DNA from: Phycisphaerales bacterium
GTDB taxonomy: Bacteria > Planctomycetota > Phycisphaerae > UBA1845
NCBI GenBank assembly: GCA_020353195.1
Contig: CP070691.1
Location: forward strand, 1,457,212 to 1,521,211
Reading direction: 5' to 3'
Length of the DNA stretch: 64,000 bases
The notes under the pieces were generated by a model. That model did not search any database. It saw only the letters and a list, made by a program, of their open reading frames with translations, and was not told where the DNA came from. Numbering within the stretch: the first letter of the stretch is position 1; each line of letters starts with the position of its first letter. Shown piece by piece: positions 6,961-61,238 of this stretch. The position numbers were made by a program, and so were the translations under genes.

Positions 6961-8454
6961 ATGACCTTCGGCGATCACAGGATGACAAGAGGATCACACC
7001 AGTTTGATGTCTGGCCGGCCCCCGGTCCTTTGAAGGCCCAGCCTCAGCCTCAGAGCCGAGCGCTCTGGGGTACGTTCATCGTGGCATGGGCAACCTCCTG
7101 CTTGGTCGGTGTCGCCGCAGCGGCCTGGTACGAGCAGGCCGTTCTTGGCCTCATGATCGCGACGCCACTGACGCTGGTCGGCGTGGTGCTCAGCCCTACT
7201 TTCGCTCTCTGCTGCATCGCGCTGATGCTGCCGCTGGGCGGATCCTTGGTATACGAAGGTACCATCAGCAGCGACCGGGTTGTTGGCGCGGTGGCGGCTC
7301 TGGGGATTCTGGCGAATCACTTGGCTACGGGCAAGGGGATACGGATCGGGGGCTCGCCGCTCATACCGTTGTTTCTCATCGTTGTCTGGTCGCTTCTCGC
7401 GGTGTTGTGGGCGGCCTATCCCATGGTAGCGGTCGCGGGCGCGTTCACCCTGGTGCAACTCGCCATCTGGGGGCTTGCTGTTTGGAACGCGCTCGCCTAC
7501 GGACGGCATGCTATCTGGCCTTTGCGATGCTATGCAGGCGGCACGCTCGTCATCGCTGGGCATATGTTCTGGACCGGATCCATCTATCGCATGGCCCGCT
7601 CTGCGGAGCGTGTCACCGTCGAGGTCACGGCAGCGATCAACCCCGCCGATTTCGCCGTGCTCCTCGGGGTCGCGTTCTTCGTGACCGTGTATCTCATCCT
7701 GCGAGATCCGACGAAGTGGTTACGACCTGTGTGGGCGCTGGGGGCGCTCATCTTTCCCGCGATCATGATCCAGACCGGTTCCCGTGGTCCCCTGCTCGCG
7801 CTTGGTGCGGCCATCTTCATATCCCTGTTTACGGCCGCCTCGGGATTTCGGAAATCGAAGGCGATGCTCATTGGTGTAGCTGCAATGCTGGTCCTCGCGG
7901 CCGGAGGCGCGTACTGGAGCATGCACGGTGGGTTTATCAGTGAGAAGTCCATGGAACGGCTGACGAGTTCGGGGGAGAAGGAACGTGCGGCCAGTTTCCG
8001 TCTCTACCTGGCAAAAACCGGAGTAGACCATGTGCTGAGAAACCCGCTCGGTGTTGGCCTTGGCAACTACACTCTCGTTGGTGTCGAAACGACTGTTGTC
8101 CACATGGAGATCCTGTTCCTCGGCACCGAGTTGGGTATTCCCGCAATGGTTCTCTATGTGTGGTTTTTCTGGAAGCTCGGTGCGGGGTCGCTCAAGACAA
8201 AGTCTCCGGCTGAGAAATGGTTCCTGCAGACAATGGTGGTCTTCCTCATGGCGGCTGCATGTATACACGTAATATTCTTCAGAAAGGTGTTTTGGTTCTC
8301 CACCATTGCAGCGGCAGCCATCGCCTATCGATCACGGCAGGAGGAGGGCGCACAGCCGTACGCCGTGGGCCAAGCGTCGGGGCCAGGCGGACTCTCGGGG
8401 ACAAGCTGGGCGGCGGCGCAACCGGGCCTGAGCCGATGGCCGGAACGGAGGTAA
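6961..8454 (+). CDS. O-antigen polymerase/ligase family (Wzy-like) membrane protein
   Basis: 497 aa with many hydrophobic segments. It has a Wzy_C-like loop, MIQTGSRGPLLALGAAIF. Confidence 0.65.
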   Translation: MTFGDHRMTRGSHQFDVWPAPGPLKAQPQPQSRALWGTFIVAWATSCLVGVAAAAWYEQAVLGLMIATPLTLVGVVLSPTFALCCIALMLPLGGSLVYEGTISSDRVVGAVAALGILANHLATGKGIRIGGSPLIPLFLIVVWSLLAVLWAAYPMVAVAGAFTLVQLAIWGLAVWNALAYGRHAIWPLRCYAGGTLVIAGHMFWTGSIYRMARSAERVTVEVTAAINPADFAVLLGVAFFVTVYLILRDPTKWLRPVWALGALIFPAIMIQTGSRGPLLALGAAIFISLFTAASGFRKSKAMLIGVAAMLVLAAGGAYWSMHGGFISEKSMERLTSSGEKERAASFRLYLAKTGVDHVLRNPLGVGLGNYTLVGVETTVVHMEILFLGTELGIPAMVLYVWFFWKLGAGSLKTKSPAEKWFLQTMVVFLMAAACIHVIFFRKVFWFSTIAAAAIAYRSRQEEGAQPYAVGQASGPGGLSGTSWAAAQPGLSRWPERR

Positions 8455-8501
8455 CACGCGGCGGCTGAGTTTGTTCGCGAAAGACAGGACAGGGGACGAC
8501 G

Positions 8502-9734
8502 ATGCGAATACTGGCCATCGCCAATCTGTACCCGCTTTCGGTGGAGGACTTTGCCGGGCATTTCAATCATCTCTGCTTCCGCGCTTTGTGCCGGCAGGGC
8601 CATGATGTGAACGTGTTCCGGTGCCAATCTCGCTTTCCGTTCTTGCTGTCCAGACAGTGGCATCGACTCGGTCGGCAGACAGTGCAGTCGTTCTATAATC
8701 TCGAAGGTGTTCCCGTGACGTGCCCCAGATTCTGGCGCCCACCGGGGCAGTGGTGGTGCCCCTACGAAGGCCGACAGCGCTACAAGGCCATTGCCCGCGT
8801 CGCAGTTCCGATGCACCGGCGTCGGCCTTTCGACATCATCTACGGCTGCGAACTGACGCCCGATGGCGTAGCAGCAGCGTCCCTGGCCCGTGATCTGAAT
8901 CTTCCGTTGATGGTCTCCAGCATTGGCAGCGACGCGCATACGTACCCGTACATGTCACGTGCATTCATGCGTCGAACGCAGCGGGTCGTCCGCGAAGCGA
9001 ACCTTATACTGGTCGAGAGCGCAGGTGCCGTTGATGCGGTCCGCGCGCTTGTACCGGAGCAGTTACCCATCCGGGTATTCAACCGTGGCATTGATCTGGT
9101 TCCGTTCCGCCGGCCGCCGGGTCGCGAGACTGCGCGACGCCGCCTGGGCTTGCCGCTGGGGCGGCGCCTCATCGTACTCGTCAGTCTGCTGGGCAAGAAC
9201 AAGGGCGTCCAGGTGCTTGTCGATGCATTCGGTCGCCTTGAGAATCGGTTCCCTGACGTAGACCTTGTGTTTGTGGGAAGTGGTCCTCTGAGCGCTTGGC
9301 TTGCGAGACAGGTGGCCTCACTGCCCTGGGGCCACAGACTGCACGCGATTGGCCGTCGCCCGTTCAACGAGATTCCGGACGTCCTTTCCGCGTGCGATGT
9401 CTTCTGCCTGCCGAGCTTCGCCGAGGGACTTCCCAAGAGCGTGATCGAGGCCATGGCGGCGGGACTACCGGTCGTTGCCACTACCGTCGGTGGGATCCCC
9501 GAGGTCGTGCAGGCCGGTGCGAGCGGGATCCTGATCCCCGCACGTGACCCCGTTGCCCTGGAAGCTGGGCTTGCCGAGCTTCTTGGCGACCCCGACAAAG
9601 CAGCGCAGATGGGCAAGGTGGGCCGCCAAATCGCCCTCGAGCGATACGACACCGAGAAGAACTCTGCGGAGCTGGTGGTGTTCGCGCGCCAGGCCATCGC
9701 GCGAGCAGCGAAGAAACCCGGGAACTCATGCTGA
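8502..9734 (+). CDS. Glycosyltransferase family 4 (GT-B fold)
   Basis: 410 aa. The C-terminal E-x7-E region is FAEGLPKSVIEAMAAGLPVVATTVGGIPEVV. Confidence 0.85.
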   Translation: MRILAIANLYPLSVEDFAGHFNHLCFRALCRQGHDVNVFRCQSRFPFLLSRQWHRLGRQTVQSFYNLEGVPVTCPRFWRPPGQWWCPYEGRQRYKAIARVAVPMHRRRPFDIIYGCELTPDGVAAASLARDLNLPLMVSSIGSDAHTYPYMSRAFMRRTQRVVREANLILVESAGAVDAVRALVPEQLPIRVFNRGIDLVPFRRPPGRETARRRLGLPLGRRLIVLVSLLGKNKGVQVLVDAFGRLENRFPDVDLVFVGSGPLSAWLARQVASLPWGHRLHAIGRRPFNEIPDVLSACDVFCLPSFAEGLPKSVIEAMAAGLPVVATTVGGIPEVVQAGASGILIPARDPVALEAGLAELLGDPDKAAQMGKVGRQIALERYDTEKNSAELVVFARQAIARAAKKPGNSC

Positions 9735-9910
9735 CCGAGCTGCCCACCTGCGAGGCGGCCGTGGCGAGATGGTGGGGGTCCTGGCGGACGCGATCGGGGC
9801 AAGTCACCGTGCCCGAGGCTGTCCGTCAGCCTGGTGCATCGCGGAATGGTCGCGGACAACGGATGCCCGGTGCGGGTGGCGACGGGACGTAGCCCAGCGG
9901 AGACCGCGCG

Positions 9911-30623: not shown

Positions 30624-32264
30624 ATGGCCGTCAAGCAGTTGGCCTACCAACAGGAGGCGCGTCGTGCCCTGATGGCGGGCGTGACGAAGTTGGCCGACGC
30701 CGTCAAGGTGACCCTGGGGCCCCGGGGACGAAACGCCGTCATCGATAAGGGGTGGGGCGCCCCCAACGTCACGAAGGACGGTGTCACCGTCGCGGAGGAG
30801 ATCGATCTTCGGGACAAATACGAGAACTTGGGATGCCAGCTGGTCAAGGAGGCGGCCAGCAAGACCAGCAAGACGGCCGGGGACGGCACGACCACGGCGA
30901 CCGTGCTTGCGGAGGCGATCTACGCCAACGGGCTGCGCAACGTCGCTGCCGGCGCCGATGCGAACGCGCTGAACCGCGGGATTCGAAAGGCGGCCAGCCG
31001 CGTGGTGGACGCTCTGAAGGGAATGTCCCGCCCGATTAAGGTCGCCAACCGGGACGACATCGTCAACGTAGCCTCCATCTCCGCCAACAATGACGCCGCA
31101 ATCGGGAACATCCTGGCCGACAGCTTCGAGAAGGTCGGCAAGGACGGGGTCATCACCGTGGAGGAGGGCAAGGGCGCGGAAACGGCGATCAAGCTCGTGG
31201 AGGGCATGCAGTTCGACCGTGGATTTCTGTCCCCGCATTTCGTCACGGATCAGGAAGGGCAGGAATGCGTTCTCGAGAAGCCCTACGTCCTGCTCAATGA
31301 GGACAAGATCAGCAACGCTCAGAAACTGGTGCCGCTGCTCGAGGCGGTTGCCAAAGCGAAGCGCCCGCTGTTGATCATCGCCGAGGACGTCGAAGGCGAG
31401 GCCCTGGCCACGCTGGTGGTCAATCACATGCGGGGTACGCTGAAGGCCTGTGCGGTCAAGGCGCCCGGCTACGGGGACCGCCGCAAGGCGATGCTGCAGG
31501 ACATCGCGGTGCTGACCGGCGGCCAAGCCCTGATGAAGGACCTGGGCGTCGACCTGGAGAGCGTATCGGTCAGCCAGTTGGGCCAGGCCAAGCGCGTGCG
31601 GATCAGCGCCGACGAGACCACGATCCTGGAGGGCGCGGGCCGGGGCAGTGATATCCAGGCCCGCATCAAGCAGATCCGCAACGAGATTGACGCCACCACC
31701 AGCGACTACGATCGCGAGAAACTGCAGGAGCGCCTGGCCAAGCTCTCCGGTGGCATCGCTCAGATTAACGTTGGCGCTGCCAGCGAGACTGAACTCAAGG
31801 AGAAGAAGGCCCGCATTGAGGACGCCCTCCATGCGACCCGTGCCGCCATCGAAGAGGGCATCGTGGTCGGTGGTGGCGTTGCCTTGGTGCGGTGCATCGA
31901 GGCGCTCGACAACGTGTCCGCCGCGGGTGACGAGAAAACCGGCGTCGACATTGTTCGCCGGTCGCTGTCGGCCCCGCTGAAGCAGATCGCCGTGAACGCC
32001 GGCATCGAGCCCGGTGTGGCGTTCCGGAAGATCGCTGACAGCAAGTCCCCTTCGTTCGGGTTCAACGCGGAAACCCTCTTGTACGGTGATCTGATGAAGG
32101 ACGGTGTCATCGACCCCACGAAGGTCGTGCGAATCGCCGTCGAGAACGCCAGCAGCGTGGCACGGACGCTGCTCAGCACCGACTGCATCGTCACCGAGAA
32201 ACCCGAAGAAGAGGATGATGCCGGCCCCGGCGGACCCGGCATGGACGATATGGATTTCGAATAG
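30624..32264 (+). CDS. groL: Chaperonin GroEL, copy 1 (no adjacent groES upstream)
   Basis: 546 aa. It contains [20 protein letters not shown]...[10 protein letters not shown] and the acidic Gly/Met tail [13 protein letters not shown]. An AAGGAG-like RBS precedes it. Confidence 0.97.
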
Positions 32265-32450
32265 AGCGAAATCCGGGCCTGTGAGACGGGTCGTCCGACT
32301 TGTCGTCTCGATCGGCCGGAGAAGTTCGTCTTGCAGATGTGAAACCGCCGGATCGCCGGGAAGCGACAGCAAAGAACATCAGGCAATAACGTCAGGAAGA
32401 AACGTTAACAGGAAACCCGACATCACATACGATACGGAGGACACGCCAAG

Positions 32451-32765
32451 ATGGCTACCGTAACCGCAAAGAGGCTGAAGCTCAGCCCGCTCGATGACCG
32501 CGTCGTGGTGCAGCCCACAGAAGCCGAAGAGGTGACCGCCGGAGGGATCGTCCTGCCCGACTCCGCCCGCGAGAAACCCCAACGTGGGAAGGTGGTGGCC
32601 CGGGGACCGGGCAAGCTGTTGGACACCGGTAAGCGCGGCGAGATGGACGTCAAGGAAGGCGACGAGGTCGTGTACGGAAAGTACTCGGGCACCGAGGTGG
32701 AGGTCTCCGGTGAGACCTACGTCATCCTGCGCGAGAGCGACATCCTCGGCGTATTCCAGAAGTAA
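32451..32765 (+). CDS. groES: Co-chaperonin GroES
   Basis: 104 aa containing [40 protein letters not shown]. Confidence 0.97.
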
Positions 32766-32824
32766 GGCGGGCGGGCAAGCGAAACGGTCCGCACCGTCGC
32801 GGATCGAACCGACAGGAGTAAGCC

Positions 32825-34435
32825 ATGGCCAAGCAGATGATGTTCAGTAACGACGCCAGGCAGCAGATCCTGGATGGGCTGGGGAAGCTGTCAGGGGCGG
32901 TGAAGGTCACCTTGGGGCCCGTGGGCCGCAACGTGATCCTGCAGAAGTCGTTCGGCCCGCCCCGGATCACCAAGGACGGCGTGAGCGTCGCCAAGGAGAT
33001 CGAATTGCCCGAGCCGTTTCAGAACATGGGCGCCAAGATGATCAACGAGGTGGCCAACCGGACCAGTGACAAGGTCGGGGACGGCACGACCACGGCCACC
33101 GTGCTGGCTGACGCGATTTACCGGGAGGGCCTCAAGAACGTGACCGCCGGCGCGAATCCGATGGCCTTGAAGCGCGGGATCGACGCGGCGGTGGCGGCGG
33201 CTGTCAAGAGCATCGAATCCCAGTCTCGCAAGGTCAGGAGCAACGACGACCTGGCCAACGTCGCCACCATCGCCGCGAACGGGGACGGCGAAGTCGGCAA
33301 GCTGCTGGCCTCGGCGCTGGCGGATGTGGGCAAGGACGGCGTCGTTGAAATCGAGGAAGGCAAGAGCATGGGGTTGGAAAAGGAAGTGGTCGACGGGATG
33401 CAGTTCGACAAGGGCTTCATCTCGCCCTACTTCATGACCGACCCCGGGGCACTCGAGTGCGTGCTGGAAAAGCCCCACATTCTGTTGTTCGAGAAGAAAG
33501 TCTCCAGCCTCCGCGACTTCGTCCCACTGCTGGAGACGATCGCCAGCTCCGGCGTGTCGTTGCTGGTGATCGCCGAGGACGTGGAGGGCGAGGCGCTGGC
33601 AGCCATGGTGGTCAACAAGCTGCGAGGCACCCTGAAGTGCGCTGCCGTCAAGGCGCCGGGCTTCGGCGACCGCCGAAAAGCGATCATGGGCGACCTGGAG
33701 GTGCTCACCGGCGGGCGCCTGATCAGCGAGGACCTGGGCATCAAGCTGGAGAACGTCTCCCTCAGCGATCTGGGGCGCGCCGAGAAAGTCGTCATCACGA
33801 AGGACAACACGACCGTCATCCAGGGTGCGGGCAAGAAGGCGGACATCAAAGCGCGCATCGACCAGATTCGCAGCCAGATCGAGAAGACCACCAGCGACTA
33901 CGATCGTGAGAAGCTGCAGGAGCGATTGGCCAAGCTCACCGGCGGGGTGGCCGTCATCCGCGTCGGTGGAGCGACGGAGATCGAGGTGAAAGAGCGCAAG
34001 GATCTGGTCGAGGATGCCCTCCACGCCACGAAGGCGGCAGCGGAGGAGGGCATCGTACCCGGCGGGGGCGTGGTCTTCCTGCGGGCGATCGACACAGTGG
34101 TCAAGGCCCGCTCGAACGTTCGCGGTGACGAGAAAATCGGCGCAGACATCGTGGCCCGGGCCCTGCGATGCCCGACCCGCCAGATCGTCGAGAACCGCGG
34201 GGGCGAGGGCGAGGTCGCCGTCGAGCAGATTCTCGAAAAGACCGGAAGCTACGGGTACGACGCCCAGGCGGACAAGTTCGGGGACATGTTCCAGGCCGGA
34301 ATCGTCGATCCCGCCAAGGTGGCCCGAACCGCGCTGCAAAGCGCCGCGAGCGTGGCGGGCCTGATGCTGACAACCGAGGTGTTGGTGACCGATTTGAAGG
34401 ATGAGAAGAAAGACATCGCCCACTCGGTCCGATAA
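32825..34435 (+). CDS. groL: Chaperonin GroEL, copy 2 (follows groES)
   Basis: 536 aa containing [16 protein letters not shown]...[10 protein letters not shown]. The C-terminus [14 protein letters not shown] lacks a Gly/Met tail. Confidence 0.97.
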
Positions 34436-34551
34436 GAACGTAGGGCGACGGGTTGGCTGAAGGGCGGGCTGGCGGGTCCGCCCTTTGCGCGCCGAGACCC
34501 GTCGTTCAGTGCAGATTCGGCCCCGGAGAAAGTGCTGGGAAAACAACGGTG

Positions 34552-35703
34552 ATGGCACGAACTCAGCGCGATTACTACGAGGTCCTCGGCGTCGACCGCA
34601 ATGCTGCGCCGGCGGAGATCAAGAAGGCGTATCGCAGGCTGTTGATCAAGCATCACCCCGACAAGAACCCCGACAATCCCGAGGCGGAGCAGAAGTTCAA
34701 GGAAGCGGCCGAAGCCTACGAAGTCCTGAACGATCCCGAGAAGCGGCAGCGCTACGACCAATTTGGGCACGCCGGGCTGTCCGGTGTCGGGATGCACGAC
34801 TTCAGCGGTATGGGGTTCGAGGACATTCTCTCCATGTTCGGGTTCGGCGATCTGTTCGGACAGATCGGAGGCGTCGGCGGCATGGGGCGCCGCCGGTCGC
34901 GCGGCGCCGATTTGCAGACTGAACTGGAGTTGACGCTGGAAGACGTCGCCGCCGGGGTCGAGCGGACGCTCGAGTTCACGCGGCGAGACTACTGCGACGC
35001 CTGCGGCGGGACGGGGGCTGGACCGGGGTCGCGACAGCAGAACTGCCACACCTGCGGCGGATACGGGCAGGTCGAACAATCCAGCGGATTCGGACTGCTG
35101 ATGGGGCGGGTGATCACCACTTGCCCGTCGTGCCGCGGAAAGGGGAAGGTCTTCACCCAACCTTGCTCCGCGTGCCGCGGTGCGGGGCTGGCTCCCAAGC
35201 GGCGAGTGGTGAACGTCAAGGTCCCCGCCGGAATCCAGGACGGCCAGGCCATTCGCGTGCGGGGCGAGGGTGAGCCGGGCGAGAACGGGGCGCCGCGCGG
35301 CGACCTGCATTGTTACGTGCGGGTTCGGCCACATGAGTTCTTCCAGCGCCGCAACAACGATCTGTTGTTGACCATGCCCATCGCGTTCACGCAGGCGGCG
35401 CTCGGGGCCAAGCTCGAGGTTCCCACGCTTCGCGGGCGGGCGATCCTGACCGTGCCGGGCGGCACCCAGACGGGCCAGATTTTCCGACTGGCCGGCGAGG
35501 GACTGCCGGATCTCCGCACCGGACGCAAAGGCGATCAGTACGTCGAAGTCGCGGTCGAGATTCCGACCCGGCTGAACAAGGACCAGGAACAGTTGCTGCG
35601 ATCGTTCGCGGAAACTGAGGACAAGAGTGTCTTGCCCAAGAGCAAGGGGTTCCTGGATCGGCTGGTCGAGTACATAGCGGGTGTCGAGGGAAAGAAAGAC
35701 TGA
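34552..35703 (+). CDS. dnaJ: Molecular chaperone DnaJ
   Basis: In-frame ATG 34552 of track ORF 34453..35703. It has a J domain (DYYEVLGV...HHPDKNP), a G/F region and four CxxCxGxG zinc-finger repeats. Confidence 0.95.
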
Positions 35704-41463: not shown

Positions 41464-42609
41464 ATGCTTCGAGCCGCGCATACCCGGACATTGCTGGACG
41501 TCCTGTCCTTGCCCACGGCCCCGTTCGTCGAGGGCCGGGTGCATGCCTACATTGAGGACTTCTGCCGCAAGCTTCGCAGGGTCACGGCCGCCCACGACCG
41601 GGCGGGGAACATCCTCATGCGCTATCGGGGCGACTCGCGACGGATCCGCCGGCCCGTATGCCTGAGCGCCCATACGGATCATCCCGGCTTCGTCGCCGAA
41701 CGGATGATAGCGCCGGGGCGCCTCCGCGCGACCTGGCGGGGCGGCGTGCGACCGGTGTACTTCCGCGGCGCCCGCGTCCGGTTCCTCGTGGGCAACGAGT
41801 GGGTCCGCGGGCGCGTGCGGTCGGTCCGCACAGGCGGTCGAGGGGCGACCCGGCGCGTCGAGACCGCTGACGTCGACGTCCGGCGTCCGGTCCCGGCCGG
41901 TGCCATCGGCATGTGGGATCTGCCGGACGCGAGGATACGCAACGGTCGGGTCTACGCCCGAGGCTGCGACGACCTGGCCGGTGTGGCCGCCATGCTCTGC
42001 TGCCTCGAAACGCTGTCGCGAAGGAAAGCCCGCACCGAGGCCTACTTTCTGTTCACCCGGGCCGAGGAGGTCGGGTTCGTCGGCGCCATGGCCGCCTGCC
42101 GACAGCGCACGGTCCCCGAGCGCTGCCTTGTCGTCACGGTCGAGACCAGTTCGCAGCTTCGTGACGCCCGGATGGGGGACGGCCCGATCCTTCGCGTCGG
42201 CGACAAAGCCACAACGTACTTCTCCGCCGCCACGAGCTACTGTCAGGCAATCGCCGACGCGGTGGGCAAGCGCGATCGGACATTTGCGTATCAGCGGAAG
42301 CTCATGGACGGAGGAACGTGTGAGTCGACCGTTTACTGCCAGTTCGGGTACGAAGCCACCGGCCTGTGCCTCGCCCTGGGCAACTACCACAACATGAACC
42401 TGCGGACCGGTCGGATCGGTGCCGAGTACGTCGACCTCGCCGATTTTGCCAACCTGGTCAAGTGGTTCGTCGCCCTGACGACGACCAGGGATCCCTACAC
42501 GGGCACGCATACCGCTCTCCGCACCCGCCTTCGCAAGATCGAGCGGGAGCACGCGACCCTTCTCCGCAAAACCCGCAACGCGGTCGTTCCGGCTGCCGAC
42601 CGGTCTTGA
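41464..42609 (+). CDS. M42/M20-type metallopeptidase-like hydrolase
   Basis: 381 aa. Metal-ligand-like motifs are LSAHTDHPGF, GCDDLAG and TRAEEVGFVGA. Confidence 0.6.
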   Translation: MLRAAHTRTLLDVLSLPTAPFVEGRVHAYIEDFCRKLRRVTAAHDRAGNILMRYRGDSRRIRRPVCLSAHTDHPGFVAERMIAPGRLRATWRGGVRPVYFRGARVRFLVGNEWVRGRVRSVRTGGRGATRRVETADVDVRRPVPAGAIGMWDLPDARIRNGRVYARGCDDLAGVAAMLCCLETLSRRKARTEAYFLFTRAEEVGFVGAMAACRQRTVPERCLVVTVETSSQLRDARMGDGPILRVGDKATTYFSAATSYCQAIADAVGKRDRTFAYQRKLMDGGTCESTVYCQFGYEATGLCLALGNYHNMNLRTGRIGAEYVDLADFANLVKWFVALTTTRDPYTGTHTALRTRLRKIEREHATLLRKTRNAVVPAADRS

Positions 42610-43766: not shown

Positions 43767-44687
43767 TCACCCTTTCCTACCGCCGGGAGCCTGTGGGACG
43801 GTGTGCTTATGCGGCACGCCGTAGTATCCGGAGCACTTGAGGCACCGGGTGACGTCGCCGCACACTGATTCAGGGACTTGCTGGATATAGTGACACCTCG
43901 GGCAACGAACCGGAACGAAGTTCGACGCGGAACCGCGCGAAGACCTCCGTTGCAGCCTGGTTTTCTGTGAGTCGTCCAGTAGGTAGTCGTGCTGGCGCCG
44001 TCTCCTCTTCGCCCGTTTTCTTTCAAGCATGCGCTGGCGATCCAGAGCGGTGAAGCGGGGTGTGGGTTCCTTGATCAGCTTCTTTCCGGTCGCCGCCTGG
44101 TAGCAGTAGGTGAAGAGAATCTCCCATTCCCGGCATTGAAGAGTCCGAACCAGCTCCTGGCCGACCCGGTCGAGTTTGTCGATCCGGGCCAGCTCGTAAA
44201 GGTCCAGGAACGCGATCGGCTCCCATGCGCAGTCAAACTCCATGATCTGCTTGAATCGCGCGATCGTCTTGTTGTTGCTGGCCCCGGCGGTGCTGATGGC
44301 GTCAACGGCGTACTTTGCCATCTCCTCGAAGATCGGATGACCCTCCATCGCCTGGAAACTGCTCTTCGCCTGGGCGAGTTGGCCGAGATGTCGCTGACAC
44401 AAGCCCGCGAGATACCACCGCTCCCTTTCCCTCGCGGGCTCGGCGGCCGCCACACATTCGTGGAGCCACCCATTCCACATGTACAGCATCGCCCGCGTGG
44501 CGGCGCCCATCGCCGTGTCTGCCAGCTTTGCGCGTCCGAACAGCTTCGCGTCGTCGATCTCGTCGAGCGTGTTTTTCGCCGTTTCGCTGGGGCGAAGTTG
44601 CCATCGCAGCGGTGGCACTTTCGCACTCCGCTGCATCAGAACATACGTTACCTCGGAGGCGAGCAGGGACGTATCCAGACCGATCAT
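43767..44687 (-). CDS. Hypothetical protein: helical N-terminal domain, basic linker, C-terminal CxxC...CxxC zinc ribbon
   Basis: 306 aa. The C-terminus reads VRCPRCHYIQQVPESVCGDVTRCLKCSGYYG, with an RKRAKRRRRQ linker. I recognise no family. Confidence 0.6.
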   Translation of the reverse strand: MIGLDTSLLASEVTYVLMQRSAKVPPLRWQLRPSETAKNTLDEIDDAKLFGRAKLADTAMGAATRAMLYMWNGWLHECVAAAEPARERERWYLAGLCQRHLGQLAQAKSSFQAMEGHPIFEEMAKYAVDAISTAGASNNKTIARFKQIMEFDCAWEPIAFLDLYELARIDKLDRVGQELVRTLQCREWEILFTYCYQAATGKKLIKEPTPRFTALDRQRMLERKRAKRRRRQHDYLLDDSQKTRLQRRSSRGSASNFVPVRCPRCHYIQQVPESVCGDVTRCLKCSGYYGVPHKHTVPQAPGGRKG

Positions 44688-46724: not shown

Positions 46725-46945
46725 GGGAGCAAGCGCAGCCTGTGCCGGGCGGACGGATCGACGGCGGATGCCGTCGCGCCGGTTCGGGCGATCCGCGTCG
46801 CCCTTGAAGCAGGTGGGGGGACGACCGCGCTTTGGCGCTCAAGCCCGGGCCGCTACAATGCACTATGCGGCTGCCTGGTACGCAAAGTACTGGCCGTCGA
46901 ACGACGTATGGAAAGGCCGCGCGATCCCCCGGCGGGAGGAACAGG

Positions 46946-48310
46946 TTGAAGAGCCACGCACGAACAATCTGCCTACTTACCGGTACGCTGATCGCCGCCG
47001 GTTGTCATTCACCCCGCGGTGGCCAGTTGGCCGGCCGACTCATAGCCGAGGTCATGACCGGCAGCCAGTTGTCGAACAACCTCCGCGCACTGGCTGTGCC
47101 CGGTGGACGCCTGAGCGGATCGCCCAACGCAGCCAAGGCCGAGCAGTACGTACTGGACAAGCTGCTCGAGTACGGTCTGTCCAACGTGCATTTCGAGGCG
47201 TTTCGCATGACCACCTGGCGGGACCGGAGCACGGAGATCACGGTCCTTGGAGATCCGCCACAGCGTCTGGACGTCGTCCAGGCCCTCGGCAACAGCTTGA
47301 GCACGCCGCCGGAAGGCATCACCGGCGAACTGGTGGACGTGGGAAAGGGGACACGGGAGGAGTTCGAAGCCAGGAAAGAGCTGCTGGCCGGCCGGTTCGC
47401 CCTGGCGCATTACGGCGACGTCCACCGGGCGCGGAAGATGAAGTACGCGCTGCAGCACGGCGCGCTGGGGCTGTTTCACATCTCGCACATCGAAGACCAG
47501 GTCGTTGTGGGGACCTGCCACGACACGCCGGACCCGGCTCCCGGCGTCGCCATCTGCCTGAAGGACGGCGAGAAGTTGTCGCGACGGCTGGCGGTGGGGG
47601 AGACGATCCGAGTCAACGTCAAGATCGACGCCGACGCCTGGGAAGCGTCACCGCGAAACGTGGTGGGCGAGATTCCCGGCCGCGGCTCCCACGCCGACGA
47701 GATCGTCGTCCTCTGCGCCCACCTGGACAGTTGGCACCTGGCAGAAGGGGCGATCGACAACGGGTCGGGATCGGCCGCCATTCTTGAAGCCGCGCGGGCC
47801 CTGGTGACCGTCGGCCCGCCACCACGGCGAACGATCCGTTTCGTTTGGTTCATGGGTGAGGAGCATGGCCTGCACGGGAGCGAGGCCTACGTCGAAGCAC
47901 ATCAGGAGGAGTTGGATCGTATCGTCGCCGTCATCAACCTCGACATGCCCGGCGAGCCGCGTACCTTCGTGACCTACGGGCATCCGGAAGCCGTGGAGTT
48001 CCTCCGGGCGGTGCGTGACGCCTTGCCCGGTTACGAACTGAGCAGGAACGTCCGCACGAGCACCGGTGCGTTCAGCGACCACGCGCCGTTTATGAGGGCG
48101 GGCGTATGCGCATTGGCGATAGGCGGCGACTGCGGTCCGGGCGTGAAGCACTACCACACGGCCGAAGATAAGTACGAAGCAGTGGACCGCCGTGGCCTCA
48201 ACGGCTGTGCCGCCGTACTATCGGTGCTGGCCCGCCGTCTCGCCGACGCCGACCCCGCCCCCACTCACCGCCTCGCCTCCGGCGTTCTGGCCGGACAGGA
48301 CGGCTGGTGA
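46946..48310 (+). CDS. M28-family aminopeptidase with PA domain, probable lipoprotein
   Basis: Track ORF 46832..48310. TTG 46946 is preceded by GGGAGGA and gives a signal LKSHARTICLLTGTLIAAGC with a lipobox-like end. M28 ligands are HLDSW, DNGSGSA and MGEEHGLHGS. The start is uncertain (alternative ATG 46865). Confidence 0.8.
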   Translation: MKSHARTICLLTGTLIAAGCHSPRGGQLAGRLIAEVMTGSQLSNNLRALAVPGGRLSGSPNAAKAEQYVLDKLLEYGLSNVHFEAFRMTTWRDRSTEITVLGDPPQRLDVVQALGNSLSTPPEGITGELVDVGKGTREEFEARKELLAGRFALAHYGDVHRARKMKYALQHGALGLFHISHIEDQVVVGTCHDTPDPAPGVAICLKDGEKLSRRLAVGETIRVNVKIDADAWEASPRNVVGEIPGRGSHADEIVVLCAHLDSWHLAEGAIDNGSGSAAILEAARALVTVGPPPRRTIRFVWFMGEEHGLHGSEAYVEAHQEELDRIVAVINLDMPGEPRTFVTYGHPEAVEFLRAVRDALPGYELSRNVRTSTGAFSDHAPFMRAGVCALAIGGDCGPGVKHYHTAEDKYEAVDRRGLNGCAAVLSVLARRLADADPAPTHRLASGVLAGQDGW

Positions 48311-48411: not shown

Positions 48412-49989
48412 TCAGGCGGCGCTGCGCATCTCGGCCTGTACGTGCTCACGCGAGGACCGGCGACGCCTCCTTCGCCGCCGGGCAGTCAGCGCGGTCACCG
48501 GTCTGACGAATGGTTTGTAGATCAGATTCTTGTAGAACATCCGCCCGGTGCGGTAGGCGATGTACGCGGCGGGGGCAAAGAGCCTGTTGTCGAGGCACCG
48601 TCGCACCCACCGGTGCAGCGCGAAGTCGATCACCCGATGGACCCACCAGGATGGCACGCCCGCGACACGCAGGGCCAACACGATCCGCAGCCAGATATCC
48701 AGGTAGGAAGCCTGCATGATGTGCTTCTTGCCGGCGTAGGTGAACCGGTAGGCTTCCTCGTGGTGCTCTCCGATCACTCCTTCCTTGCGGGCTCGCTCAT
48801 ACATGGCGCTGCCCGGGTATAGTTGCAGAGGGAAGATCCGGGTCTTGGCGGGACCGCGATGATGGTCCGCCACAAAACGCAGCGTCTCCCGCATGTTGTC
48901 CTCGGGTTCGAACGGATTGGCCACGAGGTAGTGGTACTCGGCGTGTACGCCGTGGTCCGACAGGATCCGGACCGCCCGGGCAATCGTGTCGGTTTTCGTC
49001 GGGCGGTGATAGAGTCTGCGAAGAGTGTCCTCCGATCCGCTCTGGATGCCCATGCTGATCAGGTCGATGGGCAGCCTGGACAGTAGTTTGATCTTCCGAT
49101 CGGTGACGGTGTTTGGGAAGGCGTCGAGGTCCAGAGGCAGATTGACCCGCTCTTCGTAGACCTCCACGAACTGCGCAACCTCCTCCTCGTTGCGGATCAG
49201 GAACAAGTCGTCGATCAGGTTCACCGCTTCGATGCTCGGATACCGTTCGCGAGCGCCCTCGATCTCGGCAATGATGCTCGCGTTCGACCGCTTGCGGACC
49301 CACTTCCCCAGACCCGGCCCCTGGTAGATCCGCATCTGAGTCGAGTTGTTGCAGAACGAGCACGAATAGGGGCACCCGCGAGTGGACGACATCCGATACC
49401 GGCGTAACGCCCCGCGGAGGCGCTTGGGCTCGGCCGGAACCAGTTTGTCCTTGTGCGCCACCCAATGCCCCTTCATGTTGTAGTCCGGGAAGGGGTAGTC
49501 ATCCAGGTCGTCGGTCAGCGGGCACGTGGGGTTTCGCACGAGGTCGCCGTTTCGCAGGTAAGCGAAGTTGCGGGTTCGGGAAGGGTCGCGGCCGGCCTGC
49601 AGGGCCTCGACGAACTCGACCATCACCTTCTCGCCCTCCCCGATGCAAACGTAGTCTGCCACGCGAGCAGATTCCTGTGGGGCGACGGTCGGGTGCGTAC
49701 CCCCCCAGACGATCGGGGCCTTGACCCCGGCCTTACGAATCGCCTCCGTCAACACGCACGACCGGTAGAAGGAATTGGTCATCAGGCTCAGGCCGACCAC
49801 GTCGGCGGGCTGACAACGCTGGACGAAGTCGTCGAGCAGAGGCTGCGCAAAACCCGCCGCGGCCTCGTCCCGCTCGGAACTCATGAACAGCATGGTGACG
49901 TCATGGCCCGCCCGCTTGAGGAAGGACGAAACATATCGCAACCCCAACGCGAGCGGATAGGTGTAGGTGGATACGAGGACAACCTGCAT
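48412..49989 (-). CDS. B12-binding-domain radical SAM enzyme (class B-like)
   Basis: In-frame ATG 49989 of track ORF 48412..50088. It has an N-terminal cobalamin-binding-like Rossmann region (MQVVLVSTYTYPLALGLRY...) and the radical SAM cluster motif TRGCPYSCSFCNN. Confidence 0.85.
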   Translation of the reverse strand: MQVVLVSTYTYPLALGLRYVSSFLKRAGHDVTMLFMSSERDEAAAGFAQPLLDDFVQRCQPADVVGLSLMTNSFYRSCVLTEAIRKAGVKAPIVWGGTHPTVAPQESARVADYVCIGEGEKVMVEFVEALQAGRDPSRTRNFAYLRNGDLVRNPTCPLTDDLDDYPFPDYNMKGHWVAHKDKLVPAEPKRLRGALRRYRMSSTRGCPYSCSFCNNSTQMRIYQGPGLGKWVRKRSNASIIAEIEGARERYPSIEAVNLIDDLFLIRNEEEVAQFVEVYEERVNLPLDLDAFPNTVTDRKIKLLSRLPIDLISMGIQSGSEDTLRRLYHRPTKTDTIARAVRILSDHGVHAEYHYLVANPFEPEDNMRETLRFVADHHRGPAKTRIFPLQLYPGSAMYERARKEGVIGEHHEEAYRFTYAGKKHIMQASYLDIWLRIVLALRVAGVPSWWVHRVIDFALHRWVRRCLDNRLFAPAAYIAYRTGRMFYKNLIYKPFVRPVTALTARRRRRRRRSSREHVQAEMRSAA

Positions 49990-50208
49990 GGCATTATCCC
50001 CCGCTTCTCGGATGGTTGCACGCGGATTGCGAAATGCACGCTGTGCGGTAGACCCGCATCCCGCCCCAGCCGTAGCACCTACCTCCATTCTGACACCGGT
50101 TTCAGCGAGGTCAAGCGGAAGGCTGCGGAGACGAACGCGACCACGGGTTGCCTAGCAGCCTCGGTGCCTGTATACATTAGTGCTTCATTGAACCGTAACT
50201 CGCTCAGG

Positions 50209-52500
50209 ATGGACTCGATCGTGCCCGATTCGTTGAATCTAGTGAAAAACCCTCGCTTCGTGACCGGAAGGCAGGCACCGCGCGCCTGGAGGTGGATCGC
50301 CGGCGACGATGGCTTCACCTGGCAGTGGCTGCCGGGTCTCAACGGCGGCGGCCCCTGCATGGAGATTTCCGCCCCCGCGCCCGGCCAGCGGCAGACCGAC
50401 CGCTCTCGGGCGGCGCCGGCGATGCGCGACGTCTGGTCGCAGCAGGTCCGGTGCGTTGGCAATCAGTACTACCGCGTGGAGGCGACGGTCTCGGTGACTG
50501 AGCCCAAGGCCGACCAGGGCGATCCGGATACGGGGTTGGTCCTGTCAGTGCAGCCTCGCAGGGGAGAAGAGACCCTCGACGATCGGCTGGAGACGCCGGC
50601 GCTCCAGGCGGATTCGGGCACCATCCGTGCATTCTATGAAACACCCGCACGGGCGACCTCCATCGACCTGCGCATCGGGCTTCGCCAGGATGGCGGGCGG
50701 GCGATCATCCACGAGGTGCTCGTGATGCCCATTCTCGACCCGGACAGTACGTCGCACCCGGCGGCTGTTCCGCCGCCTCCCTACGCCTACCCGGCGCCGA
50801 AGCACGTGCAGAGCATCGGCGTATGCGGTGACGTTAGCGAGGACAGGACCCTGGTCCGCATCCTGCGTGCCCGCTACGGAAACGACGCGATCCGGGTGCT
50901 CAGGCCCCAGACCCTGGAGGCCGGGCCCGGTAAGGCAGTGCGGCGAGGCAAATGCGACGCCATCCTCATCGCGGGCGCGCTGCCGCCGGGTATCCGCTCC
51001 GTCGGCGCGCTGCTGGCCCTGGCGGAGCGCCATCTTGTTGTCCTTTCGCCGCAGGCGCTGGCCGGGCTGTCGCGCGGAGCCGTCGAGGTCCGCACGATCA
51101 GACAGAAGGACGATCCGCTCTACGCGACAGTGCAGGAATCCAACTTCATCACGCGCGGGTTCGCGCTGCGCGACTGCTTCCCGTTCGCCGGGCAGGGGGT
51201 CGGTGGTGCCGACCCGCGGGTGTTCGTCCAGCCGCAGTTCCGCTCGGGCCGGGCGTTCACCGGCTTCTGCAGGAAGAACGGCTTCATCACCGTCCTGCGG
51301 AGCGAGACGGATGCGGACGCCACTTCGGGCAAGCCGATCTGTCTGTACAAGGAGACGCCGGGCGGCGGGGTCGTGGTCATGGATCTCGATCCCATCGAGT
51401 CCAAGGCGTCCACCGCAAACGAGCGCAGTCTGGCGGTGTTCCTGCTTCTCAATGCCCTCGGAGCGGAGCAGACTTCGCTGGGCCAGTTTGCGGTCCCGGC
51501 GCGCTCGCACCGCGAGTTCTGGGAACAGATCACCGACTTCGACCAACGGTTTGCGGAATGGACTGTTGACGGGGTCACACCGCCGTACCGCCAGAACATG
51601 CGACCGTACGTGCAGCTCGGCCGCAAAGCCGATGCTTCAGCCGATACGTTCGGGCCGCCTGAGGTCGAAAGACCACTGATTCTGATTCGCACAGGCCTGA
51701 CCGGCGATGACCTCGACGGAGTGTACGGGGCCATGACGTGGCTCAAGAGCCTGGTCTACCCTGTTCCGTATGCCTGTCCCTATGTCAAGATGCTGACGTC
51801 GCGATATCGCATCGCGTGGGTACCGTTGTGCGCCGAATGGCCGAAGGGCACGGGCTGGCGCCGACCGGGCCCGGCGGTGCCGGCTTCTTGCGGCGGCGTC
51901 GAGCCGGGTCCCGTGGCGATGGTGATCGACCTGACGAACGGACCACGCAACGAGCTTCGCGTGCTGATGCAGGGGAAGTCGCCGCTGCGCCGGCGGATCG
52001 AACAGGCGCTCCTTGGTCTGTGGTGGGCCTGCTTCGCCGGGCGCTATTTCGGCTGGTCGCCGGCTGACGGAAGCCCGATGACCGACCAGCGACACTACGT
52101 GTGGCAGATGGACACGTTGGTCCCCCGCATCGAATCCGACGACCGTGTCTTTGCCGACGATTTCTATTCGTCCGCCCGCGCCGCTGGAGCGGACCTTGTC
52201 CGTGTCGAAACCCCGAACTCACCGGCCGATCTTCTGTGCAACTCCATCTGGCGAACGGACCGGGTCGCCACCCTGCTCGAAATTCTGGTCGGCCTGCAGT
52301 GCGGGCTGCTGGCTATGAACCGCCGGCAGTCCGGTCTCGAGTTACCACTGCCCGTCGGCGTCGCGGCCCCCGGCGATGCGCTCCATATCGTGAAAGCCAA
52401 GCAGACCCCAGGCCAGGTGAACGCGTCCCCCGTGCCCGCCTCACGGACCCGTACGGTTACGCTTCACGCCGGCGAAGCGCTGTGCTACTGTCGGAGTTGA
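50209..52500 (+). CDS. Large hypothetical protein (763 aa), no family recognised
   Basis: In-frame ATG 50209 of track ORF 49453..52500. The first 252 track codons are antisense to the radical SAM gene. Strong G/C third-position bias supports coding. No signal peptide or TM segment is seen. Confidence 0.6.
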   Translation: MDSIVPDSLNLVKNPRFVTGRQAPRAWRWIAGDDGFTWQWLPGLNGGGPCMEISAPAPGQRQTDRSRAAPAMRDVWSQQVRCVGNQYYRVEATVSVTEPKADQGDPDTGLVLSVQPRRGEETLDDRLETPALQADSGTIRAFYETPARATSIDLRIGLRQDGGRAIIHEVLVMPILDPDSTSHPAAVPPPPYAYPAPKHVQSIGVCGDVSEDRTLVRILRARYGNDAIRVLRPQTLEAGPGKAVRRGKCDAILIAGALPPGIRSVGALLALAERHLVVLSPQALAGLSRGAVEVRTIRQKDDPLYATVQESNFITRGFALRDCFPFAGQGVGGADPRVFVQPQFRSGRAFTGFCRKNGFITVLRSETDADATSGKPICLYKETPGGGVVVMDLDPIESKASTANERSLAVFLLLNALGAEQTSLGQFAVPARSHREFWEQITDFDQRFAEWTVDGVTPPYRQNMRPYVQLGRKADASADTFGPPEVERPLILIRTGLTGDDLDGVYGAMTWLKSLVYPVPYACPYVKMLTSRYRIAWVPLCAEWPKGTGWRRPGPAVPASCGGVEPGPVAMVIDLTNGPRNELRVLMQGKSPLRRRIEQALLGLWWACFAGRYFGWSPADGSPMTDQRHYVWQMDTLVPRIESDDRVFADDFYSSARAAGADLVRVETPNSPADLLCNSIWRTDRVATLLEILVGLQCGLLAMNRRQSGLELPLPVGVAAPGDALHIVKAKQTPGQVNASPVPASRTRTVTLHAGEALCYCRS

Positions 52501-58265: not shown

Positions 58266-58775
58266 ATCGCGAAAACGCTACGTACGAACGAACAGATCCG
58301 GATTTCACCGATTCGCCTGATCGACGAGAACAACGCCCAGGTCGGAGTCGTTTCGACATCGGATGCCCAGCGGCGGGCGCGCGACCTCGGGCTCGATCTG
58401 GTCGAGGTCTCGCCGATGGAGCGCCCCCCCGTCTGCCGGATCATGGATTACGGGAAGTATAAGTACCACCTGAAGAAAAAACAGAAGGATCGGGGGGCGC
58501 GTGCCCAGGTGGTGATGAAGGAAGTCCGACTTCGACCCAAGACCGACGACCACGACAGGCAGATCAAGATCCACCGGGCTCGTCAGTTTCTGGAAAGTGG
58601 CAACAAGGTGCAGTTCACCATGCTGTTCCGTGGGCGGGAGCGAGCTCATGCGAACATCGGGTTTGAAGTGTTCAAGTCCATTGTGGACGGCTTCGGCGAT
58701 GACGTGAAGCTCGAGCGCCCGCCGAAGATGGAAGGCCGGCGCATGACGATGGTCGTCAGCCCCGCCAAGCACTGA
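58266..58775 (+). CDS. infC: Translation initiation factor IF-3, with ATC start
   Basis: Track ORF 58416..58775 is only the C-terminal part. The frame is open back to TGA 58257-58259 and encodes IAKTLRTNEQIRISPIRLIDENNAQVGV...LDLVEVSPMERPPVCRIMDYGKYKY. GGAGG is at 58252-58256. The first near-cognate codon is ATC 58266. Confidence 0.88.
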   Translation: MAKTLRTNEQIRISPIRLIDENNAQVGVVSTSDAQRRARDLGLDLVEVSPMERPPVCRIMDYGKYKYHLKKKQKDRGARAQVVMKEVRLRPKTDDHDRQIKIHRARQFLESGNKVQFTMLFRGRERAHANIGFEVFKSIVDGFGDDVKLERPPKMEGRRMTMVVSPAKH

Positions 58776-59033
58776 TCCTGGGGACCGTATCCCCGGGGCC
58801 GGGGGGAAACAGGCGGGCTGAGTATGGGCGATGCGCGGTGACCCGCGAACGGAAGCACAGTCCGGCTGACGGTACCAGTCTGTTGGCACGACACGATCGG
58901 ATCGTCGTTTGACAGTATTGTATCGGGCGGTTTGGAGTCTCTGGCTCCGGTTGCAGTGCCGGGCGGGATGCGCTATCCTGACCTTTCTGTTTGCCGCCCT
59001 CTTGGGAGACTTGACTCGAGCAGGGGAGTGCGA

Positions 59034-60179
<1,146 letters not shown>

Positions 60180-60233
60180 AAGCGGTTTCGGCGACGGTCG
60201 GCGCGATCGACCGTTTGGCGAGTGCTGGTAGGC

Positions 60234-61238
60234 ATGAACGTACCGGACGGTTTGATCGAACGATTGACGTCGTGGCGGCGGGCCGTGATCGTGGGGCACG
60301 TGACCCCTGACGCGGACTGCCTGGGCTCCATGATTGCGCTGGCGAAGGGCCTTGCCGATGACCGACGGTGCGAAGTCACGGTGTCGCTGCCGCCGGGAAG
60401 CGTCTCGCAGCGCCTGGCGTTCATCCTCGACCAGGCCGATCCCGCACTGGCCGACCCCCGCGCCTTCGCGGAGGCCGACGGAATCGTAGTCGTGGACACG
60501 GCCAAGGTCTCGCGCTGCAACGTCGACAGGTCGATTCCGGACAACTGGGCGGACGGCAAGACGGTGATCAACATCGACCACCACGCGTCGAACACGCGTT
60601 TCGGTGACATCAACTGGGTCGAAGCAGAGGCCAGCAGCACGGCGGAGATGGTCTACTGGCTGCTGCTGCGAGCGAACCGCTCGCTCAGTCCGATGCTCTG
60701 CTCGCTGCTGTACGCGGGCATGATCACCGACACCGTGGGATTCACGCTGTCGTCGACCGCCCCGGGCACGCTCCGGGTGGCCGGCGAGGTCGTGGCCCAG
60801 GGAGCGGACGTCGCCCAGATCGGGGAGCGCATGTACCGCAGCCTGACCGCCGGCGAGTTTCGACTTCTCCAGACGATCTACGCCAATACGCGCGTGGTCG
60901 CCGACGGGCGAATCGCTTACAGCACGGCCGATCACGACGAGATTACGGGAGCGGGATGCACGGCCGCCGACATCGACGATCAGGTCAACGTGCCGCGATC
61001 GCTGCGGGGCGTGAAGATCGCGATGCTGTTGACCGAAGGTGTCCGGGGCAAAACCAGGATCAACTTCCGCGGCGAATCCGGCGTGGAGGTCCTCGAACTG
61101 GCCAGGTCGCTGGGTGGGGGCGGCCACGCCGAAGCCGCCGGGGCCATCCTCGACATGCCGATCGATCAGGCGGTTCCCCTCGTGGTGGCCAGGACTACCG
61201 AGTATGTTGACCGGCTATCCGGCGGATCGGACTCATGA
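60234..61238 (+). CDS. nrnA: DHH/DHHA1 phosphoesterase, NrnA-like (oligoribonuclease / pAp phosphatase)
   Basis: Track ORF 60222..61238; ATG is at 60234. It contains GHVTPDADCLGS, NIDHHASN and GGGGHAEAAG. Confidence 0.85.
   Translation: MNVPDGLIERLTSWRRAVIVGHVTPDADCLGSMIALAKGLADDRRCEVTVSLPPGSVSQRLAFILDQADPALADPRAFAEADGIVVVDTAKVSRCNVDRSIPDNWADGKTVINIDHHASNTRFGDINWVEAEASSTAEMVYWLLLRANRSLSPMLCSLLYAGMITDTVGFTLSSTAPGTLRVAGEVVAQGADVAQIGERMYRSLTAGEFRLLQTIYANTRVVADGRIAYSTADHDEITGAGCTAADIDDQVNVPRSLRGVKIAMLLTEGVRGKTRINFRGESGVEVLELARSLGGGGHAEAAGAILDMPIDQAVPLVVARTTEYVDRLSGGSDS

Follow-up and report, generated by a model that had tools for sequence, protein, structure and literature searches.

Does a gene for a radical S-adenosylmethionine (SAM) enzyme form a functional unit with the large protein gene that is transcribed away from it across a short spacer? 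The question arises from a 64,000-nucleotide stretch of a Phycisphaerales genome (GenBank assembly GCA_020353195.1, contig CP070691.1, forward-strand positions 1,457,212 to 1,521,211), which we call the window and number from its first nucleotide. An earlier note, made from the DNA sequence alone, had described a B12-binding radical SAM enzyme and a 763-aa "orphan" protein at this locus and had proposed the two as a candidate modification system. Our analysis favors a different reading, to which we assign a probability of roughly 0.68: the genes are unrelated, separately promoted and neighbors by descent in one branch of the Phycisphaerae, and do not make up a dedicated two-component system. 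We retain the name orphan for the 763-aa protein, although a distant relationship to M14 carboxypeptidases is described below. The two genes are located as follows.

48412-49989, minus strand: radical SAM gene, an open reading frame (ORF) of 525 codons with Pfam B12-binding and Radical_SAM domains
50209-52500, plus strand: gene of the 763-aa orphan protein, defined by its ORF, homologues and structural model

Both ORFs are present where the earlier note had placed them, and the spacer between them measures 219 bp (given there as 220). Judging by their homologues, both genes are real. More than 563 homologues of the radical SAM protein were found, over 120 of them above 50% identity and with a conserved start. 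For the orphan protein, one search returned 27 full-length-type homologues and an exhaustive profile search returned 272 clusters at 50% identity. Homologues of the radical SAM protein reach 74% identity, whereas no orphan homologue in the protein database exceeds 55%.

Distribution of the gene pair

To follow the pair across genomes, 34 non-redundant loci of the orphan family were compared, all from Phycisphaerae or Planctomycetota metagenome-assembled genomes (MAGs). Nine of these loci, which belong to two related subclades, have a radical SAM orthologue upstream of the orphan gene in divergent orientation, and the other 25 have no radical SAM gene within 10 kb. One linked subclade is the clade of the window itself; its members have the whole neighborhood in common and therefore do not provide independent evidence. 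The second (L002, L042 and L043) is at 40% orphan identity and has different neighborhoods. The gene divergent from the orphan is scpB (PF04079) in 14 of the 34 loci, and the remaining loci have another upstream gene or a contig end at this position. In a neighbor-joining tree of the orphan family the type of neighbor follows the clades, as it would if synteny had been inherited.

The housekeeping gene scpB, which encodes chromosome segregation protein B (for example at L005:1640-2275, L006:181-993 and L007:6726-7538, with 11 further loci in L017-L033), served as a control. Its adjacency to the orphan gene likewise survives changes of the outer flanking genes. As the scpB-orphan adjacency is equally well conserved, genes that stay neighbors over such evolutionary distances do not necessarily have a function in common. 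The conserved downstream neighbors of scpB-linked orphan genes contain no Pfam domains.

Two genomes document separation of the genes. Of the radical SAM gene, a Planctomycetota MAG (L011, JBPOIK010000016.1) has kept only a remnant (9270-9875, minus strand) with ~91 aa of homology to the N-terminus of the B12 domain; this remnant abuts an M28 peptidase gene, and the neighboring orphan gene is full-length. The complete genome CP070744.1 contains both genes, ~600 kb apart.

We also sampled 11 loci of radical SAM orthologues (51-73% identity) independently of the orphan. An orphan gene was nearby in none of them. The unlinked orthologues of L047, L127 and L128 are the closest relatives of the window enzyme (70-73% identity) and are nested inside the linked clade in a neighbor-joining tree. 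Radical SAM orthologues are mostly solitary, and no conserved neighbor other than the orphan was found among them. Hence the adjacency from which the earlier note deduced a two-gene unit is borne out in the nine linked loci, and fails in all 11 independently sampled radical SAM loci, in L011 and in CP070744.1. The earlier note had named a lack of co-occurrence in other genomes as a result that would refute its proposal, and this result was obtained in part: the pair is not generally adjacent there. Across the family, adjacency is not conserved beyond what common ancestry of the region provides, as a conserved two-gene module would require.

Remote relatives of the orphan protein (25-33% identity) occur in Planctomycetales MAGs. 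One (L039) adjoins a xylose-isomerase-like TIM-barrel gene (8747-9658) and another (L040) a GFO/IDH/MocA oxidoreductase gene (7668-9629); with one locus each, these contexts are too few to interpret.

Promoters in the divergent spacer

The spacer contains two predicted sigma-70-like promoters back to back, and both are conserved in an alignment of the spacers from the nine loci that carry the pair. Transcription would be expected to start near 50183 (plus strand) for the orphan gene and near 50080 (minus strand) for the radical SAM gene.

50148-50176, plus strand: orphan promoter, -35 TTGCCT (50148-50153), 17-nt spacer, -10 TATACA (50171-50176)
50087-50114, minus strand: radical SAM promoter, -35 TTGACC (50114 to 50109), 16-nt spacer, -10 CAGAAT (50092 to 50087)
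50017-50041, plus strand: two TGCACGC copies (starting at 50017 and 50035) in the radical SAM 5' leader

In the orphan promoter, TTGC.T and TATA are invariant in all nine aligned spacers. The A/T-rich patch that the earlier note had pointed out (50165-50200; 61% AT) is indeed present and holds the conserved -10 TATACA. For the radical SAM promoter, GTCAA and the -10 positions A2 and T6 are conserved across the orthologous spacers, a consensus scan found one such promoter with 0.1 expected, and a matching element is located at -97 to -135 in the window and in 6 of 8 linked relatives.

The orphan element is not confined to loci with a radical SAM neighbor. At least nine loci without this neighbor (L014, L017-L019, L025, L027 and L030-L032) also carry TTGC.T-N17-TATA ahead of the orphan gene, at a distance of 47-119 nt. 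Its presence where a different gene lies upstream identifies it as the orphan gene's own promoter. The recurring sequence may, however, represent the housekeeping promoter consensus of Phycisphaerae rather than an element specific to the orphan gene, and may help to define that consensus.

No functional role could be assigned to TGCACGC. The repeat reported by the earlier note exists, with two copies, but is at chance level: the motif occurs 7 times in the window with 17 occurrences expected, at least one repeated 7-mer appeared in 76% of Markov simulations of a 219-bp region, and TGCACGC was not found in the orthologous spacers. We therefore rejected it as a functional element. The remaining short repeats of the spacer, direct or inverted, were unremarkable. 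An Rfam search over 47.5-54.5 kb detected neither a cobalamin riboswitch nor any other RNA, and the predicted fold of the radical SAM 5' leader is not superior to that of shuffled sequences (z = +1.0).

Independent genes or a functional pair

Several observations weigh against independence of the two genes. Although the outer flanks changed, adjacency and divergent orientation of the pair persist among orphan proteins of as little as 40% identity, and the window clade, L002 and L042 represent three contexts, with L043 (on a short contig) as a fourth linked locus. The orphan is the sole recurrent neighbor of the radical SAM orthologues. Only ~33 bp separate the two -35 elements, and a shared regulator is therefore possible. 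There are also limits to the comparison itself: most loci come from MAG contigs whose flanks do not exceed 10 kb, the neighbor-joining trees carry no support values, and genome-level co-occurrence was checked in one complete genome, CP070744.1.

These points would fit a functional pair in this sub-lineage, co-regulated from the back-to-back promoters, in which the M14/CBM-type orphan protein (CBM, carbohydrate-binding module) binds or presents a peptide, glycopeptide or glycan, or processes the product, and the radical SAM enzyme modifies the ligand. Such a pair would account for divergent adjacency in two subclades with different outer neighborhoods, for the recurrence of the orphan beside radical SAM orthologues, and for the compact spacer architecture that is conserved together with both promoters. 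We nevertheless consider it unlikely. The radical SAM gene is missing from the vicinity of 25 of 34 orphan genes, and the orphan from all 11 sampled radical SAM orthologues, the nearest relatives of the window enzyme included. The protein database offers radical SAM homologues of up to 74% identity but orphan homologues of 55% at most, L011 has kept the orphan gene and lost the radical SAM gene, scpB is held next to the orphan equally well, and the orphan promoter stays unchanged whichever gene is upstream.

A more specific possibility is that the zinc-less M14/CBM protein was recruited in the linked sub-lineage as a non-catalytic partner of the radical SAM enzyme, either as substrate binder or as substrate. 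We regard this as quite improbable. If true, the orphan protein might, for example, hold the C-terminus of a peptide or glycopeptide that the radical SAM enzyme methylates, and a pseudo-peptidase and a radical SAM enzyme would here be paired in a way not described before.

Support for a dedicated modification system of two genes is thus poor, and the proposal of such a system appears to be mostly an effect of inherited gene order. According to the reading we favor, gene order inherited in this Phycisphaerae branch would place two independently functioning genes side by side. The first, usually a stand-alone gene, encodes a class B radical SAM enzyme in which an N-terminal cobalamin domain precedes the [4Fe-4S]/SAM core, followed by a basic-tailed helical extension. 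The second encodes a probably cytoplasmic protein composed of a CBM-like sandwich, an alpha/beta domain, an M14-derived domain that retains the acidic residues Asp501, Asp574 and Glu667, and a small beta-sandwich.

The radical SAM enzyme

The elements of the radical SAM protein are located as follows.

49612-49986, minus strand: B12-binding Rossmann-like domain, residues 2-126 (PF02310, E 8e-20, 71.3 bits, cut-off 32.1)
48871-49392, minus strand: radical SAM core, residues 200-373 (PF04055, E 6e-18, 66.1 bits, cut-off 29.5)
49351-49374, minus strand: CX3CX2C motif, C206-PYS-C210-SF-C213, read from the sequence
48412-48717, minus strand: C-terminal helical amphipathic extension (residues ~425-500), RRRRRRRR tail and stop codon, from the alignment and sequence reading

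With both Pfam domains above cut-off and the CX3CX2C motif in place, the class B (B12-domain) identity given in the earlier note is confirmed. Its CPYSCSFC cluster and Arg-rich amphipathic C-terminus were likewise seen in the sequence and in the homologue alignment, where C206, C210 and C213 are invariant in 28 homologues. The homologues also have a conserved C-terminal block, YL.IWLR.VL.LR...FAP...YR.GR...NLIYQPFIRP. The hydropathy maximum of the C-terminal extension is only 1.38, arguing against a transmembrane helix. A longer ORF of 558 aa begins at an ATG at 50088. We rejected this ORF as the gene because the homologues all start with MQVVLVSTY and because its ATG falls inside the predicted -10 element.

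Assignment to a named subfamily was not obtained. NCBIfam returned 32 class B subfamily matches, all far below their curated cut-offs; the best was TIGR04013 (103 bits, cut-off 251), and BchE and HpnJ scored 84 and 74 bits against cut-offs of 481 and 578. Sequence matches in the PDB were weak (9ccb, ELP3 and TokK, 7kdx). PADLOC detected just a generic radical SAM similarity (PDC-M51A, 41 bits), and we therefore made no defense-system assignment. Our literature search found no paper that ties Phycisphaerae to this enzyme. Since no curated NCBIfam cut-off is reached, the sequence comparisons identify the protein as a class B enzyme of an uncharacterized orthologous group that is widespread in Phycisphaerae. 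It would be expected to perform a cobalamin-dependent radical reaction, most commonly a methylation. Being widespread, usually solitary and outside the named subfamilies, the group is a candidate for substrate discovery.

Domain structure of the orphan protein

Searches of Pfam, NCBIfam and PDB sequences, with the single orphan sequence and with a 24-sequence profile, gave nothing meaningful; the sole weak matches were one TraD and one uS17m. Pfam also found nothing in ten remote homologues of ~550 aa. The statement of the earlier note that the protein contains no recognizable motif is therefore correct for these sequence searches, but does not hold once profile and fold evidence is considered, which reveals M14-like and CBM-like domains. 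Neither a signal peptide nor a convincing transmembrane segment was detected, making the cytoplasmic location suggested earlier plausible.

The start of the gene may need adjustment. NCBI calls a protein of 759 aa, implying a GTG start at 50221, and the L011 gene has ACG where the window has the ATG. GTG at 50221 may for this reason be the true start.

An AlphaFold2 model was built on a 24-sequence alignment, with a predicted local distance difference test score (pLDDT) of 83 and a predicted template modeling score (pTM) of 0.88. A second model covers residues 196-763 (pLDDT 85). Both were compared to the PDB with Foldseek, the output of which came without residue-level alignments, and domain boundaries were estimated from the order of secondary-structure elements (DSSP). 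The model suggests five parts: a beta-sandwich, a Pro-rich linker carrying a conserved SH motif, two alpha/beta domains and a small C-terminal beta-sandwich. The four folded parts are as follows.

50287-50733, plus strand: N-terminal CBM-like beta-sandwich, residues ~27-175 (all-beta by DSSP; Foldseek)
50815-51468, plus strand: alpha/beta domain A, residues ~203-420 (DSSP; invariant R..Q.DDP, TRGFA..D and GG..V.D)
51508-52308, plus strand: M14-carboxypeptidase-like domain, residues ~434-700 (Foldseek, Pfam M14 in relatives, alignments; boundaries inferred)
52303-52497, plus strand: small C-terminal beta-sandwich, residues ~699-763 (DSSP strands)

The N-terminal sandwich, preceded by the conserved start NLVKNPRF..G..PR.W.W, matched structures of CBM22, CBM16, CBM4 and CBM6 (E 3e-6 to 1e-4; template modeling (TM) score normalized to the target 0.55-0.68). 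This agrees with the earlier note, which had likened the first ~170 residues to a jelly-roll or CBM. No Pfam CBM family matched the orphan protein even at E <= 10. For the central segment (residues ~250-395), the earlier note had suggested an amidotransferase- or ThuA-like fold; no ThuA or class I amidotransferase-like structure was present among the 50 best listed Foldseek matches per model, which were mostly CBM and M14 structures.

The C-terminal sandwich varies in length, and ~30 of its residues are missing by an alignment indel from short-form family members (707-713 aa). Foldseek matches to carboxypeptidase D, which comprise a catalytic domain and a beta-sandwich, align over ~420 columns. 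From the model, we infer that the C-terminal sandwich corresponds to the transthyretin-like domain of carboxypeptidase D.

Relationship to M14 carboxypeptidases and loss of the zinc site

The model of residues 196-763 matched 3b2y with E 4e-8, and M14 structures in general with E 4e-8 to 1e-5 and a probability of 1.0. Further matches were the bacterial cytosolic carboxypeptidase (CCP)-like structures 4b6z, 4a37, 3l2n and 3k2k, CCP5, carboxypeptidase D, and carboxypeptidases A, B and T. Target TM scores were just 0.4-0.5; taken by itself, this fold match would give a tentative assignment.

The homology is settled by sequence comparisons. Five remote full-length relatives from the exhaustive profile search (P0227, P0232, P0235, P0245 and P0248) carry Pfam Peptidase_M14 at 56-75 bits (cut-off 21.6). 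BLASTP of the window protein against P0232 gave E 2e-25 over 754 aa, and hhalign of the orphan family against the M14-bearing relatives gave a probability of 100% and E 8e-59 over 670 columns, end to end. The GIHSDEW and NRNF motifs of P0232 align with carboxypeptidase B. The M14-intact relatives also possess domain A and an N-terminal sandwich domain, the latter starting with NLLxNPSFEEG. The Pfam M14 model itself did not match the window protein even at E <= 10. The N-terminus of P0248 is signal-peptide-like (MNRQILVSSTALAVWAVCLAVLPATAQ), unlike that of the window protein and the other relatives, which raises the possibility of export for some intact members of the wider family.

We next located the active-site positions, using carboxypeptidase A numbering, in which His69, Glu72 and His196 are the zinc ligands, Asn144-Arg145 bind the substrate carboxylate and Glu270 is catalytic. 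The HxxE zinc motif (His69, Glu72) aligns with T498-G-D-D501 of the orphan protein (51700-51711), and the third ligand, His196, with T576. His is found at position 498 in 1 of 34 orphan-family sequences and at position 576 in none. A segment of ~26 residues containing DLNRNFP, the NRNF loop with Asn144-Arg145, is a gap in every family member. The Glu of the (I/V)EQ motif in the M14-intact relatives (Glu270 position) aligns with E667 (52207-52209). Conservation is high for D501 (33/34), D574 (34/34) and E667 (32/34), and R665 is nearly invariant.

On this alignment evidence, the orphan protein belongs, as a degenerate member without a zinc site, to a Planctomycetota family of multidomain M14 carboxypeptidases. 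Having lost both zinc-binding His residues and the Asn-Arg substrate loop, it is most likely not a working zinc carboxypeptidase. It would instead be a pseudo-enzyme that binds a ligand, or else a hydrolase whose site has been rebuilt. The latter would be a still active enzyme relying on the acidic residues Asp501, Asp574 and Glu667, perhaps with another metal. The near-invariance of D501, D574, E667 and R665 in 34 sequences despite the loss of His, and the strong conservation of the family over its whole length, are consistent with retained activity. Deletion of the NRNF loop, which anchors the substrate C-terminus in M14 enzymes, argues against it, as does the fact that neither His ligand is replaced by a conserved metal-binding residue. 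An active hydrolase is thus possible but doubtful.

The earlier note had reckoned with the orphan having a clear housekeeping homologue unrelated to radical SAM chemistry as a finding that would undermine its proposal. In part such a homologue was found, as M14 peptidases are unrelated to that chemistry. A Phycisphaerae-wide family of ~700-770 aa that is invisible to Pfam, NCBIfam and PDB sequence searches is now placed as a zinc-site-less M14 descendant. This placement offers annotators a name and a concrete hypothesis, pseudo-peptidase or rebuilt-site hydrolase.

Surrounding genes and the possibility of a peptide-modifying cassette

The neighborhood of the pair in the window is of a housekeeping type, with two GroEL genes and genes for DnaJ, a CLC channel, an M28 peptidase, a metallo-beta-lactamase (MBL)-fold protein, NrdR, RsfS, FolE and ThrRS. 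This context bears on the possibility of a cryptic cassette for a ribosomally synthesized and post-translationally modified peptide (RiPP), in which a precursor peptide that escaped annotation would accompany a peptidase and a class B radical SAM C-methyltransferase. The derivation of the orphan protein from a peptidase family would be compatible with this idea, as would weak NCBIfam similarity of the radical SAM protein to RiPP radical SAM methyltransferases (TIGR03975, 61 bits; ApyD, 61 bits). These scores, however, do not come near the respective cut-offs (282 and 750 bits), zinc ligands and substrate loop are missing from the peptidase domain, and the radical SAM orthologues are mostly solitary. 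Moreover, spacer and flanks contain no conserved small ORF, transporter, RiPP recognition element (RRE) protein or other tailoring gene next to the housekeeping neighbors. In view of the missing precursor peptide, transporter and active peptidase we rejected this very improbable reading, and two genes that are neighbors by descent remain the preferred explanation.

Other features of the window were recorded. A DnaJ gene (34453-35703) comes after a pair of GroEL/Cpn60 paralogues (30624-32264 and 32825-34435), and the region 30624-35703 has a strongly positive AT skew (0.14-0.23). A 306-aa ORF (43767-44687, minus strand) has no Pfam domains, is conserved in L008, L009 and L011, and ends in a Cys-rich, zinc-ribbon-like sequence (CPRCHY...CLKCSGYYG). 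The gene of the M28 peptidase, which has a PA domain (46832-48310, plus strand), is convergent with the radical SAM gene; 6 kb upstream is the gene of an M42/M20-type aminopeptidase (41464-42609, plus strand). An M28 peptidase gene is also found ~4 kb downstream of the unlinked orphan gene of L003; its recurrence near the orphan in the window and L003 is probably coincidental. A 940-aa ORF (58305-61127, minus strand) has no Pfam domain and overlaps plus-strand ORFs, including a DHH/DHHA1 gene (60222-61238); we take it for a likely antisense artifact of the GC-rich sequence.

Comparison with known systems

The radical SAM protein shares with characterized class B enzymes (TokK/ThnK, BchE, HpnJ/HpnR, PhpK and GrsA/B) the order of a B12-binding domain followed by a CX3CX2C core, and its sequence weakly resembles TokK (7kdx) and many class B models of NCBIfam. 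According to a review on lipid-modifying radical SAM enzymes (PMC13459092), those of the B12 type such as GrsA/B have a C-terminal helical extension. The window protein also has such an extension, a resemblance that we treat as an analogy only. In contrast to the named subfamilies, the enzyme belongs to its own Phycisphaerae-wide group with a distinctive C-terminal block and basic tail, and there is no conserved pathway neighborhood around its orthologues. It falls below the NCBIfam cut-offs for BchE, HpnJ, HpnR, PhpK, ladderane radical SAM proteins, RiPP C-methyltransferases and TIGR04013.

The N-terminal domain of the orphan protein resembles CBM4/9/16/22 modules in its beta-jelly-roll and in the N-terminal form N-L-V-x-N-P-x-F..G..W. 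It differs from them in its probably cytoplasmic context and in having no glycoside hydrolase attached.

With M14 metallocarboxypeptidases the orphan protein has in common the alpha/beta carboxypeptidase fold, full-length homology to M14-bearing proteins and a Glu at the Glu270 position. Its architecture is closest to the CCP-like M14D group (4b6z, 4a37; CCP5, 8v3p) and to carboxypeptidase D (3mn8, 1qmu). As in the M14 group, one beta-sandwich is N-terminal and another C-terminal to the catalytic-type domain; the N-terminal sandwich, however, resembles CBM4/16/22 modules and not the N-domain of CCPs. Unlike M14 enzymes, the orphan protein has neither His69 nor His196, carries a near-invariant Asp (33/34) in place of Glu72, has the NRNF loop deleted and contains an extra alpha/beta domain of ~220 aa between the N-terminal sandwich and the M14-like domain.

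Inactive M14 homologues are known from animals: CPXM1, CPXM2 and AEBP1/ACLP lack catalytic activity and have an N-terminal discoidin domain. These proteins differ from the orphan protein in being eukaryotic and secreted and in having other accessory domains. As a functional analogy only, they would parallel the orphan protein in that selection has maintained an M14 fold although catalytic or zinc-binding residues are gone, and in that a binding module is present at the N-terminus.

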